A stretch of DNA of 64,000 nt from a bacterium. GTDB lineage: Bacteria; UBA8248. The position numbers and the translations under genes are program-made. The first letter of the stretch is position 1; every line of letters starts with the position of its first letter. The notes under the pieces are model-generated. The model searched no databases. It saw only the letters and a program-made list of their open reading frames with translations, and was not told where the DNA came from. This document shows positions 25,013 through 64,000 of the stretch, in pieces. The DNA is taken from contig OY843592.1 in NCBI GenBank assembly GCA_963692865.2, forward strand, positions 3,136,001 to 3,200,000. Direction: 5' to 3'.

Positions 25013-25651
25013 TCACGCAGTAACGGCCTGCTCGGCGAGCAATTCATCGAGCACCCGGTCGACCCTGGGCTGCTCCGTCCAACTCGCCTTGTAGGCGATG
25101 TTCCCCTCCTTGTCGATGACGAAGACCATGTTCGGCATGCGCCCGTAGGCGTTCACCACCGCCTCGTCGATGTCGTCCACCAGTACGGGTATCTTCATGC
25201 CGAATTCCGCCACCAGTTCCTTCGCATAGCCCATCTTGTGCTCGAAAGAGGTGTGCTGGGTATACTTTTTGAAGTACTTGCGCTCCTGCGCGTGGGGTTC
25301 CTTGGAGTAGACGACGAAGAACTCAACGTCCTTCTCCTTGTAGCGCTCATACAACTCGTCCATGCCCGGCACCTGCCGGCGGAAGGGGGGTCACGTGATG
25401 GCGCCGAACTCGAGAACCACGTTCTTCTTCCCGCGAAAATCGGCCAAGTCCACGGTTTCGCCCGAAGTGCTCTGGAGCTTCACCGGAGGGGCGGGCCGGC
25501 CGGGCCTTAACTGTTCCTCGAAAGCCTTGTGGCGGACTTTTCTGAACCCGCTGAGCTCACGCTTGATCATCAGAAACGGGTCCAGATACCACATGCTCCA
25601 CAAGCCCCCCAGGGGGCCGGGCGGCCTGTCGATATAATCTTCTTTCTGCAT
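25013..25651 (-). CDS. Deiodinase/peroxiredoxin-like selenoprotein (UGA=Sec at 25391-25393)
   Basis: ORFs 25391-25651 and 25013-25372 share one frame: VVLEFGAIT-UGA-PPFRRQVPGMDELY...VYSKEPH...AYGRMPN; downstream hairpin. Confidence 0.85.
25366..25379 (-). promoter_or_regulatory. Candidate bacterial SECIS
   Basis: CCGGC-AGGU-GCCGG hairpin starting 11 nt after the UGA. Confidence 0.65.
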
Positions 25652-60600: not shown

Positions 60601-60942
60601 GTGGAACACATCAAAAGACACGTTTTCGTCTGCATCAACCAACGTCCGCCGACTCATCCGATGGGCTGTTGCCAGAGCAAGGGCAGCATCGAAGTCGCGC
60701 AAGCGATTACGGAGGCAATCGGCTCGAACGACGAACTCGCTGCGGATACGGCCATGGCGGGCGCCACTTGCCTGGGTCCGTGCACGATGGGACCCACCTT
60801 GGTCGTTTACCCCGAGGGCGTCTGGTACACGGGCGTAAAGGTGGAGGATGTTCCCGAACTCATAGAGGAACACCTGAAAAACGGCCGCCCCGTCGAGCGG
60901 CTGCGCCTGAGGCTGCCCGGAAATGTCGGAAGCGACGACTAG
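60601..60942 (+). CDS. Thioredoxin-like (2Fe-2S) ferredoxin
   Basis: HVFVC, CLGPC..GP..VVYPEGVWY, EHLKNG. Confidence 0.9.
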   Translation: MEHIKRHVFVCINQRPPTHPMGCCQSKGSIEVAQAITEAIGSNDELAADTAMAGATCLGPCTMGPTLVVYPEGVWYTGVKVEDVPELIEEHLKNGRPVERLRLRLPGNVGSDD

Positions 60943-60963
60943 TATGAATATGGAGGCCATACG

Positions 60964-61236
60964 ATGAGCCGTGGACTGGTGATGCACTCGAAAGACAACG
61001 TGGCCACGGTGCTTGAGGACGTCTCCCCCGAGCAAAACGTGGAAATAGAAGGCGGCGAGAAATCACTTACGATTTCGGCGACGGAAGCGATTCCTTTCGG
61101 GCATAAAATCGCGCTGCGAAAGATCCGCTCAAACGCAAAAGTGCTCAAATACGGCGAAATCATCGGCACCGCCACACAAGAGATATCCTCAGGCAGTCAC
61201 GTTCACGTCCACAACATCAAAAGCACCAGAGGCTAG
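60964..61236 (+). CDS. UxaA/SuyA-like SAF domain subunit
   Basis: DNVAT, IPFGHKIAL, KYGEIIG, HVHVHN. Confidence 0.88.
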   Translation: MSRGLVMHSKDNVATVLEDVSPEQNVEIEGGEKSLTISATEAIPFGHKIALRKIRSNAKVLKYGEIIGTATQEISSGSHVHVHNIKSTRG

Positions 61237-61238
61237 CC

Positions 61239-62417
61239 ATGGCCCGGAAAAAAGCGACCTCCACTTTTTGGGGACACAGAAGGCCAGAGGGTCCTCCGGG
61301 CGGACGGAATCATCTCGCCATCGTCAGCGGCATGGACAATTCCAACCCTATAGTCCGCAGAATCGGCTCCCTGGTGCGAGACGCCACTCCCGTCAACACT
61401 TCGTTCGGTCGCGCACTGATGGGCGAGGACGAGGCGCAACATTGGCGGGTGATGGGCCATACCGCCGCCCACCCGAACGTAGGAGCCGCGATAATCGTGA
61501 GCCTAGAACCCAAAAGCGCCAACGCCATCGCGGAAGTAGCCGCCAGAACATCTCCCTGGATGCCCATTGAAGCCGTGAACATACAGGAGATTGGAGGCAC
61601 GCTCAGCACCACTTCGCACGTGGTGGAAATTGCAACGAAACTTTCCGCCCATCTCGCATCCGCCAAACGCGTCCGCTGTGAAATGGGCGAACTCACCATC
61701 GGGGCCGAATGCGGAGGATCGGATACGACCAGCGGCGTCATCTCGAACCCCGTGACGGGCATGGTCGCCGACAAGGTCGTGGAAGCGGGAGGTTCTGTCA
61801 TCTTTTCCGAAACGCTCGAAATCGTCGGAGCCGAGCATCTTCTCGCCCGTCGTGCCTCGGACAGGAAAACGGCGCGGAGAATCATCGATTCCGCAAGGCG
61901 CGCCGTCCATTACGCCGAAAGCATCGGCGTCGACTTCATCGGCTCGAACCCGGCGCCGGACAATATCCGGGGAGGACTCTCGTCCATAGAGGAGAAAAGC
62001 CTGGGGGCCATCAAAAAAGCGGGGAGCCACCCCATCGTCGAGGTCGTCGGCGTGGGAGAACGCCCCTCGAAGAAGGGCGCCATCTTCGCCGACGCTCCCT
62101 GCGCGGGCGTGGAGAACATCTCCTCGCTCGCGGCCAGTGGAGCGCAGGCGATTATATTCTCGACCGGAATCGGCAATCCCATCGGCCATCCCATCTCTCC
62201 CACAATCAAGGTGACCGGAAACCCCCGAACCGCGCGGACGATGGCTGAGAACATCGACGTGGACATCAGCGGCGTCATGGAAGGGACGATGCGCATCGAC
62301 GAGGCGAGGGATTTGCTCGAAAAAGAACTCCTCGCCGTTATGAGCGGAAAACTCACGACTTCGGAACTTCTGGGAGAAACCGAACTCACGGTAAGCCGGG
62401 CCGCGCTAAGCCTCTGA
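61239..62417 (+). CDS. UxaA/GarD/SuyB-like dehydratase or lyase large subunit
   Basis: ECGGSD, SNP, EEKSLG, FSTG.G, PTIKVTGN. Confidence 0.88.
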   Translation: MARKKATSTFWGHRRPEGPPGGRNHLAIVSGMDNSNPIVRRIGSLVRDATPVNTSFGRALMGEDEAQHWRVMGHTAAHPNVGAAIIVSLEPKSANAIAEVAARTSPWMPIEAVNIQEIGGTLSTTSHVVEIATKLSAHLASAKRVRCEMGELTIGAECGGSDTTSGVISNPVTGMVADKVVEAGGSVIFSETLEIVGAEHLLARRASDRKTARRIIDSARRAVHYAESIGVDFIGSNPAPDNIRGGLSSIEEKSLGAIKKAGSHPIVEVVGVGERPSKKGAIFADAPCAGVENISSLAASGAQAIIFSTGIGNPIGHPISPTIKVTGNPRTARTMAENIDVDISGVMEGTMRIDEARDLLEKELLAVMSGKLTTSELLGETELTVSRAALSL

Positions 62418-63204: not shown

Positions 63205-64000
63205 ATGAGCAAACAAATTTCCTTACGAGAAGCCGCTTCTCTCATTGAAAAAGGAGACGCGATTAGTCCCGGCGGTACTCTTTTGCACAGAACGCCCGCC
63301 GCCCTGATACGTGAAATTGCGCGCGCGGGCCTTCGGGACCTCACGCTCATCAAGCCGTCTCCCGGTTACGACGCCGACCTCCTTTGCGCCGCAGGGGCCG
63401 TTAAGAGAATCATCAGCGGAATCGTTACGTTCGAGGCGGAATTCGGACTGGCGCCTCACTATCGAAAGGCGATTGAGAAAGGATTGGCCGGCCTCACCGA
63501 GCACGCCTGAGCCAGCGTTCTGGCCGGGCTGCGGGCCGCAGCCTACGGTGTTCCCTTCCAGCCTATTCGTGGATTTGGCGGGAGCGACATTCCTGAGCAA
63601 AGCGGTATTTTCACTTTCGAGGACCCCTACACGAAAGAAGAACTCCATGCGATTCCCGCCCTCAAGCCGGACTGGGCGTTGATCCACGTCCAGAAATCAG
63701 ACACGCAGGGAAACGCCCAAATACTCGGCAACCAGCAATTCGACGTTGAAATGACGCGCGCGGCGCAAAAAGGAGTCATACTCACAACCGAGAAAATCGT
63801 TGACCCAGAACAAATCGCCGTAGAGCCGGAGAGAACCACCATTCCGGGCTTTCTGGTCAAGGCGGTCGTGGAAACGCCGGGCGGGGCGTCTCCTTGCAGT
63901 TGCCATCCATACTATGGGGTCGACAAAACAGAAATGAGGCGCTACATGACCTTGACCCAGAGTCAAGACGGACTTCGGGAATATCTGGCAAGCACCGATA
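63205..64000 (+). CDS. Family I CoA-transferase subunit A (GctA-like) with in-frame UGA at 63508-63510 (probable Sec); 3'-truncated by window
   Basis: The frame continues past UGA with no stop to the window end: ASVLAGLRAAAYGVPFQP...DPY...PALKPDWALIHVQKSD..GN...IPGFLVKAVV..PGGASP. Confidence 0.82.
63524..63548 (+). promoter_or_regulatory. Candidate bacterial SECIS
   Basis: CCG-GGCUGCG-GGC-CGCAGCC-UA-CGG stem-loop starting 13 nt after the UGA. Confidence 0.55.

Follow-up and report, generated by a model that had tools for sequence, protein, structure and literature searches.

The window analysed here, a 64,000-nucleotide stretch of bacterial DNA corresponding to positions 3136001-3200000 of contig C1 of the genome, ends in a gene for the alpha subunit of a two-subunit enzyme of the CoA-transferase fold, the reading frame of which contains a UGA at codon 102. 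We consider it very likely that this is a genuine selenoprotein gene, coding for a selenocysteine (Sec)-containing alpha subunit, and the insertion of Sec at codon 102 is, on the sequence evidence, a conclusion that can be held with high confidence. SelB with Sec-tRNA(Sec), held by an mRNA stem-loop just downstream, would recode the UGA, and the product would be a 275-aa alpha subunit of the GctAB, IpdAB and AibAB type.

The open reading frame (ORF) begins with an ATG at 63205 on the forward strand, runs for 101 codons to ...LTEHA and meets a TGA at 63508-63510, after which the frame is open for 163 codons up to the end of the window. An earlier note on this DNA had described this arrangement, together with the motifs AGLRAAAYGVPF, PALKPDWALIHVQKSD and PGGASP, and all of it was recovered from the read-through frame. 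In the whole genome the frame comprises 275 codons and its stop lies 32 nt beyond the window. The match to the Pfam domain CoA_trans (PF01144) covers residues 6-223 and spans the TGA (E 1.4e-20). A second gene, of 250 codons, begins 2 nt past the alpha stop, outside the window, and its product also matches PF01144 (E 1.7e-18); since both products match this domain, we take the two genes to encode an enzyme with the family I CoA-transferase fold, the first its alpha and the second its beta subunit. The elements of the Sec gene are as follows.

63205..63507, + strand: codons 1-101 of the alpha subunit, with ATG start and ending in LTEHA; part of the PF01144 match, which continues past the TGA, as does the conservation (64-95% protein identity) among 34 phylum genomes
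63508..63510, + strand: UGA codon 102, probably read as Sec; TGA in orthologues, Cys in other EHAC homologues, aligned with Glu105 of IpdA
63511..64000, + strand: codons 103-265 of the alpha subunit in the same frame, the end of which lies past the window
63523..63549, + strand: hairpin of the selenocysteine insertion sequence (SECIS) type, with synonymous constraint and pairing across genomes

Conservation and spread of the in-frame TGA

Orthologues were identified in 34 of the 51 phylum genomes, with the above identity over the full length and with exactly one in-frame TGA in each case. The 34 genomes represent five genera of one family, and the public records of the window's relatives are labelled Nitrospinota or Nitrospinaceae, some of them Candidatus Tectomicrobia. 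Codon 102 was TGA in all 22 aligned orthologues as well as in 12 of 12 further ones. The earlier note had proposed that reads be checked at the TGA; contigs assembled from three public runs of one study, which possibly include the source sample and are not independent of the window, covered 63447-63759 with zero differences and carried the TGA. X4 was without coverage of 63502-63717. The idea of a sequencing or assembly error in a single genome is refuted by the presence of TGA in 34 phylum genomes and at 54 independent public loci, and by the agreement of the contigs from the three runs, and its probability is negligible.

At column 102, the five nearest paralogues (46-53% identity) all carry Cys, within the motif EHAC, whereas His is found in paralogues that are less closely related. 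Cys was also the aligned residue in 76 of 96 database matches obtained by word search, so that the comparison suggested by the earlier note came out in favour of Sec; the others had Glu (12), His (3) or Ser (1). The remaining four matches are pieces of 166-170 aa that start right past the column (P0007, P0035, P0082 and P0089), as would be expected from a gene caller that stops at the TGA, and an N-terminal piece of 101 aa is also present in the public records (P0104). When 148 sequences representing the wider family were compared, the column held Glu in 66, Cys in 26, Asn in 15, Gly in 14, His in 6 and other residues in the rest.

A scan of contigs, using one genome per species, yielded 303 relatives. 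In the best 80 of the 303, which were analysed further, column 102 was TGA in 54 and TGC or TGT in 26. The 54 TGA loci comprise all 24 of the Nitrospinota type and 30 with other labels, namely 26 Burkholderiales/Betaproteobacteria (two of them oddly labelled), 2 Thermomicrobiaceae and 2 Chloroflexota. Over all loci fetched, every stop at this column was TGA (88 of 88) and none was TAA or TAG. Of 301 sampled genomes belonging to the order of one non-Nitrospinota carrier, 11 had a homologue at E <= 1e-60, and 7 of the 11 had TGA (2 of these previously counted). Additional TGA-containing copies, which the earlier note had proposed to look for, are thus numerous and distributed over several phyla.

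We also inferred a quick maximum-likelihood tree. For this analysis, high-scoring segment pairs of <200 residues were dropped and identical rows were merged (147 to 123), while column 102 was kept, with Sec coded as a gap and Cys retained. The tree of 123 rows requires at least 3 changes between Sec and Cys, and places the Sec clade of the Burkholderiales (26 rows) as sister to a Cys clade (20 rows). Two loci labelled 'uncultured Streptomyces sp.' (L117) and 'Chitinophaga pinensis' (L119) fall inside the Burkholderiales Sec clade, for which mis-binning, mislabelling or recent transfer are possible explanations. In one Nitrospinota genus (L040, L077, L079 and L080), a Cys-type alpha gene is located about 0.8 kb downstream of the Sec alpha-beta pair on the same strand; this Sec/Cys tandem fits an origin by duplication.

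The short pieces in the public records are what would be expected if the TGA were a true stop, with the alpha subunit made as two polypeptides or the gene in decay, and in the Burkholderiales form an ATG does follow right after the TGA. However, the next standard start codon (ATG, GTG or TTG) in frame after the TGA of the window is at 63679, with none earlier, and codon 105 is GTG in just 2 of the 22 orthologues. Since codons 103-158 are nevertheless conserved at the protein level, this segment would be made only via read-through of the UGA. Full-length Cys forms exist, some of which have Met at position 103, and there are also Sec forms with Ile at this position. The exclusive use of TGA among the stops, as well as the nucleotide constraint on the hairpin described below, would be unexpected for a split gene or a pseudogene, and we regard a true stop as very improbable.

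The machinery for Sec insertion, which the earlier note had named as a prerequisite, is complete. The genome contains selA (505 bits), selB (392 bits, adjoining selA), selD (335 bits) and a gene for tRNA-Sec, and selD (C1:65915-66877, - strand) itself has one in-frame TGA. The tRNA-Sec gene is present in two copies on separate contigs (C1:1207500-1207596 and C4:29715-29811); the contamination of the genome is estimated to 6.69%, so one of these copies may be foreign. Within the window, a 212-aa ORF at 25016-25651 on the - strand also contains one TGA (25393-25391), in the motif GAIT-U-PPF, and its product matches the Pfam family T4_deiodinase (PF00837, E 6.3e-20) as well as Redoxin and AhpC-TSA. 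Judged from its sequence it is a deiodinase-like selenoprotein, of a family already included in a 2026 review, and it is probably the second UGA gene that the earlier note had counted in the window. Outside the Nitrospinota, a full-length SelA was identified in 4 of 5 Sec genomes tested.

The hairpin downstream of the TGA

The earlier note had placed a hairpin at 63524-63548, and this structure is real. Its upper stem of 7 bp is formed by 63527-63533 pairing with 63537-63543 around the loop GGC (63534-63536), and its weaker lower stem, with a 2-nt bulge, by 63523-63526 pairing with 63546-63549. Counted from the UGA, the stem begins at 16 nt and the loop at 23 nt, with the hairpin located 16-35 nt downstream; this spacing is within the range of predictors for bacterial SECIS elements, which apply rules for the distance and for a G in the loop. 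The minimum-energy fold also contained a small hairpin at the UGA itself (63511-63524), which was dropped since it is mismatched in most orthologues.

The evidence that the downstream hairpin is more than a chance structure comes from the comparison across genomes and not from its folding energy. The six codons at +6 to +11 (63526-63543) have no synonymous change at all in the 22 Sec orthologues, in which the flanking codons vary. The homologous six codons of 23 Cys paralogues, which come from these very genomes, all vary, with 3-4 different codons at each, and there is no common hairpin. The 12 additional orthologues from other genera have just two substitutions in this segment, both of which preserve the pairing (U-A to U-G and G-C to G-U). 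An alignment for pairing was made from 37 of 62 distinct segments, leaving out 25 hairpins of the Burkholderiales, the 3' arm of which would need gaps. All 37 sequences form the upper helix, in which one pair shows a compensatory change and two others change to wobble; the compensatory change, from C-G to A-U, occurs in the form of the Thermomicrobiaceae and Chloroflexota and is accompanied by the replacements of Leu by Met and of Ala by Ser. The Burkholderiales form has a hairpin of its own at the same offset, with a 7-bp stem, the tetraloop CGUG and the 3' arm placed one codon earlier. The mean folding energy was -14.8 kcal/mol for 62 Sec sequences versus -10.8 kcal/mol for 52 Cys sequences; we use the means alone, as the sequences are related and the p value of 1.4e-10 in a Mann-Whitney test is overstated. 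Taken from these comparisons, a stem-loop shortly downstream of the UGA is under selection as RNA.

Several observations count against Sec insertion. The folding energy of 63500-63570 is near the level of shuffled sequences (z = -0.35), and the four lower pairs of the hairpin are less regular, two of them being unpaired in 9 and 16 of the 37 sequences. With so little variation in the hairpin there is not much covariation to draw on: both sides have changed at only 1 of 11 pairs, in 2 sequences, and at least as many such changes arise in 152 of 500 shuffles. With the shuffle control this weak, the support for the hairpin rests on synonymous-site conservation instead. In the fifth of the non-Nitrospinota Sec genomes tested (G061), the match to SelA was partial (41 bits), and all carriers of the Sec type that were seen are metagenome-assembled genomes (MAGs).

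The UGA could also be read without selenium, if a near-cognate or suppressor tRNA inserted, for example, Cys or Trp, or if the genetic code were an alternative one. Such a reading is compatible with the sequence as such and with the Cys of the homologues. Against this, Trp at column 102 was observed in no homologue among the 96 matches and 148 representatives, and the window also contains a TGA that acts as a normal stop, the one at 25015 that terminates the deiodinase-like gene. The genome has the full set of Sec genes, and the hairpin, which would be needless for plain suppression, is conserved at a distance of the SelB type. We judge selenium-free read-through to be very improbable, as was a true stop. 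The explanations that dispense with Sec (a split gene, suppression without selenium and sequencing error) are improbable even in combination, because the stop is exclusively TGA, there is no restart codon before 63679 and the hairpin is constrained.

Fold, beta subunit and proposed catalytic role

The protein sequences in the PDB that are closest to the alpha subunit are AibA (6.4e-31), IpdA (3.4e-30) and GctA (6.8e-30). In an AlphaFold2 model of the alpha subunit (pLDDT 89.9), residue 102 is the first of a helix (102-113) that follows a strand (96-99). Superposition of this model yielded TM-scores of 0.89-0.90 for IpdA and GctA and 0.84 for AibA, within a range of 0.67-0.90 for solved transferases. 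HMMER alignments match residue 102 with Gln in GctA, with Gly in AibA and with the only position that differs between the IpdA sequences of the PDB entries 6co6 and 6co9 (Glu) and 6coj (Ala). As the title of 6coj is 'IpdAB E105A COCHEA-CoA complex', this difference identifies the Sec column as Glu105 of IpdA. In the 2018 structural work on IpdAB by Crowe and colleagues, Glu105 was reportedly proposed to be the catalytic base. The suggestion in the earlier note that Sec sits near the substrate site is thereby supported by homology, and we consider it slightly more likely than not that Sec, or Cys in the homologues with the motif E-H/N-A/S-C/U (the EHAC subfamily), takes part in catalysis where the acyl-CoA binds.

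The beta subunit differs from that of a classical transferase. The column of the canonical nucleophile, Glu54 of GctB, holds Val in the beta subunit next to the window (LIEVAG) and corresponds to Cys56 of AibB. Over all C/U-type A/B pairs, this column was Val or Ile in 75 of 75, whereas 4 of 4 paralogues of the His type have Glu, as seen in a His-type paralogue aligned to 1poi_B. A beta subunit that lacks the canonical Glu suggests that the enzyme is probably no classical CoA transferase, although we consider the question to be about evenly poised. As regards the label 'CoA-transferase A subunit' given in the earlier note, the fold holds, while the implied classical transferase activity fits poorly with such a partner.

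It may instead be that the protein is a selenoprotein and a true CoA transferase, in which the acyl-anhydride and CoA-thioester intermediates arise at Glu61 of the beta subunit and Sec102 is auxiliary, by polarising the thioester or as a redox switch. In the beta subunits of the Nitrospinota Sec type, Glu is located one residue before the canonical column (22 of 22 pairs in one set, and 32 of 32 loci in another), and the glycine-rich loop LPGGGGGA is kept. GctA has Gln at the Sec column, and it is a Gln that polarises the thioester in classical transferases of the SCOT type. Redox-type neighbours are also found upstream, a CMD/AhpD-like protein with a CxxC motif and a 2Fe-2S ferredoxin. However, this Glu is confined to the Sec form of the Nitrospinota; in 53 of 53 other C/U-type pairs Glu is missing from both column 0 and column -1, the latter being Asn, Thr or Ser, and yet their Cys or Sec is invariant. 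Two independent alignments set the canonical Glu on Val and not on Glu61, and the clusters of the Burkholderiales contain separate CoA-activating enzymes. We therefore find a true transferase unlikely.

The mechanism that we propose does without the classical glutamyl-anhydride cycle of CoA transfer. The enzyme would, like IpdAB and AibAB, bind an acyl-CoA made by another enzyme and catalyse a C-C cleavage, a hydrolysis or a decarboxylation, with Sec as the catalytic nucleophile or as an acid-base residue. A more specific version, which we put forward tentatively and regard as somewhat doubtful, is that this is the first selenoenzyme of the CoA-transferase superfamily, in which Sec performs non-redox covalent catalysis on acyl-CoA. 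The selenolate of the alpha subunit would then attack a carbonyl group in the bound thioester, and the resulting selenoester or tetrahedral intermediate would lead to C-C cleavage or acyl transfer, replacing the role of the lost beta Glu. Three points speak against the proposed mechanism: the Glu at column -1 of the Nitrospinota beta subunits could serve as the nucleophile; the placement in the active site derives from alignments at about 30% identity and a predicted model; and the role of Glu105 in IpdA is read here from a PDB title and a sequence difference.

Comparison with characterised systems shows how far the likeness extends. The best structural match is IpdAB (PDB 6con, 6co6, 6co9 and 6coj), the ring-cleaving hydrolase for COCHEA-CoA in steroid catabolism, with TM-scores of 0.89-0.90, root-mean-square deviations of 1.9-2.9 A and 30-32% identity. 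Like the enzyme studied here, IpdAB has the two-subunit fold of family I CoA-transferases, a beta subunit without the canonical Glu, and the residue of the E105A entry on the Sec column; PMC5380842 describes IpdAB as lacking the canonical beta Glu and CoA-transferase activity. It differs in that IpdA has Glu at the column where Sec or Cys occurs here, and in its steroid neighbours, which are not found among the Nitrospinota loci. The window enzyme perhaps works like IpdAB, yet with neither Glu105 nor the steroid (HIP) context it is not a member.

The best sequence match is the 3-methylglutaconyl-CoA decarboxylase AibA/AibB of Myxococcus xanthus (PDB 5mzw and others; 6.4e-31 for alpha and 6.3e-34 for beta), in which the CoA-transferase fold is likewise re-used for a reaction other than CoA transfer. 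According to PMC7756340, the canonical beta Glu is replaced by Cys56B in AibB. AibA has Gly at the Sec column, and the window enzyme has Val where AibB has Cys56, which sets it apart from this group as well. GctAB of Acidaminococcus fermentans (PDB 1poi), the glutaconate CoA-transferase after which most of the homologues are named in databases, resembles it in fold and subunit layout (E 6.8e-30, TM-score 0.90) but keeps the catalytic Glu54 in GctB, where Val occurs here, and has Gln at the Sec column of GctA. The fold and the adjacent alpha and beta genes of two-subunit family I CoA-transferases (PF01144; GctAB, PcaIJ, AtoDA) are all present, but the beta Glu of their E-x-G motif is not.

The Cys-type EHAC homologues, recorded as 'CoA transferase subunit A', belong to the same subfamily (44-55% identity), with the same motif and a beta subunit without the canonical Glu, and differ in having Cys for Sec and no conserved hairpin. 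Members occur in the genome itself (C1:1065385-1066191) and in Achromobacter, Comamonas thiooxydans, Piscinibacter sakaiensis, Streptomyces and others, and we found no characterised member among these homologues. With established bacterial selenoproteins such as FdhA, SelD and the deiodinase-like proteins, the alpha subunit shares a UGA with a downstream stem-loop, Cys homologues and repeated exchange of Sec and Cys, but its fold is no redox fold and PF01144 is absent from the tables of the reviews discussed below.

Gene neighbourhood and novelty

The genes flanking the alpha-beta pair are well conserved among the Nitrospinota-type loci: a gene of the RraA-like aldolase/decarboxylase family is found downstream in 21 of 24, and a divergent gene for a CMD/AhpD-like CxxC protein upstream in 22 of 24. 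In the window, the following genes are located upstream of the Sec gene.

60601-60942, + strand: 2Fe-2S ferredoxin
60964-61236, + strand: SAF-domain protein of 90 aa
61239-62417, + strand: UxaA/GarD-type dehydratase of 392 aa
62439..62951, - strand: divergent CMD/AhpD-like neighbour with a CxxC motif (Pfam CMD, E 7.8e-15); context only

The CMD/AhpD-like protein is a Cys form, and its best NCBIfam model is 'YciW-related (seleno)protein', at 83 bits versus a cut-off of 310. The genes at 60601-62417 make up a ferredoxin and a split dehydratase of the UxaA type, and this set lies by the Sec gene in the genus of the window and not in other genera.

The A/B pairs of the Burkholderiales have as neighbours an IclR regulator, a family III CoA-transferase, an enoyl-CoA hydratase and an AMP-forming ligase, as well as a CDO-like cupin, TctC receptors and a Lyase_1 or Zn-dehydrogenase gene. 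Such clusters were found both for the Cys type (L116, L121, L122, L131 and L155) and for the Sec type (L118, L145 and L156); they were identified with a crude ORF caller that also takes antisense ORFs in GC-rich DNA, and only those clusters that Pfam matches could name were taken into account. Between alpha and beta, L145 and L156 have a gene of the UDG superfamily and an EamA transporter gene. The presence of separate CoA-activating enzymes beside the pair is consistent with a substrate that reaches the enzyme already as a CoA ester. There were no genes for steroid pathways among the neighbours in the Nitrospinota, and none were recognised in the Burkholderiales clusters.

No entry for CoA-transferase or PF01144 is present in the family tables of selenoprotein reviews from 2022 and 2026, of which the latter counts >110 prokaryotic selenoprotein families; supplements to selenoproteome studies could list the family. 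A search of the full-text literature for a Sec-containing CoA transferase returned unrelated papers only. One candidate precedent, PMC7176365, was rejected, as its Sec enzymes are formate dehydrogenases. No NCBIfam model reached its cut-off on the alpha protein, and the NCBI records for the Sec-type gene consist of fragments or of entries named 'hypothetical protein'.

Redox enzymes account for nearly all of the selenoproteins known, and many of these have a thioredoxin-like fold. The gene at the end of the window would represent a new selenoprotein family that uses a known recoding system, and its fold and the site of Sec make new selenium chemistry plausible. With Sec on the catalytic-residue column of a CoA-thioester hydrolase, and with its own usual nucleophile gone, the family offers a testable case of selenium in carbonyl or acyl rather than redox chemistry. 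Should Sec act covalently, the EHAC subfamily as a whole, whether with Cys or with Sec, would join IpdAB and AibAB as a third case in which the fold has been re-used. Recognition of the Sec codon corrects the annotation of these genes and defines a Cys/Sec enzyme subfamily that lies in clusters for acyl-CoA catabolism and extends from the Nitrospinota to MAGs of the Burkholderiales, Chloroflexota and Thermomicrobiaceae.

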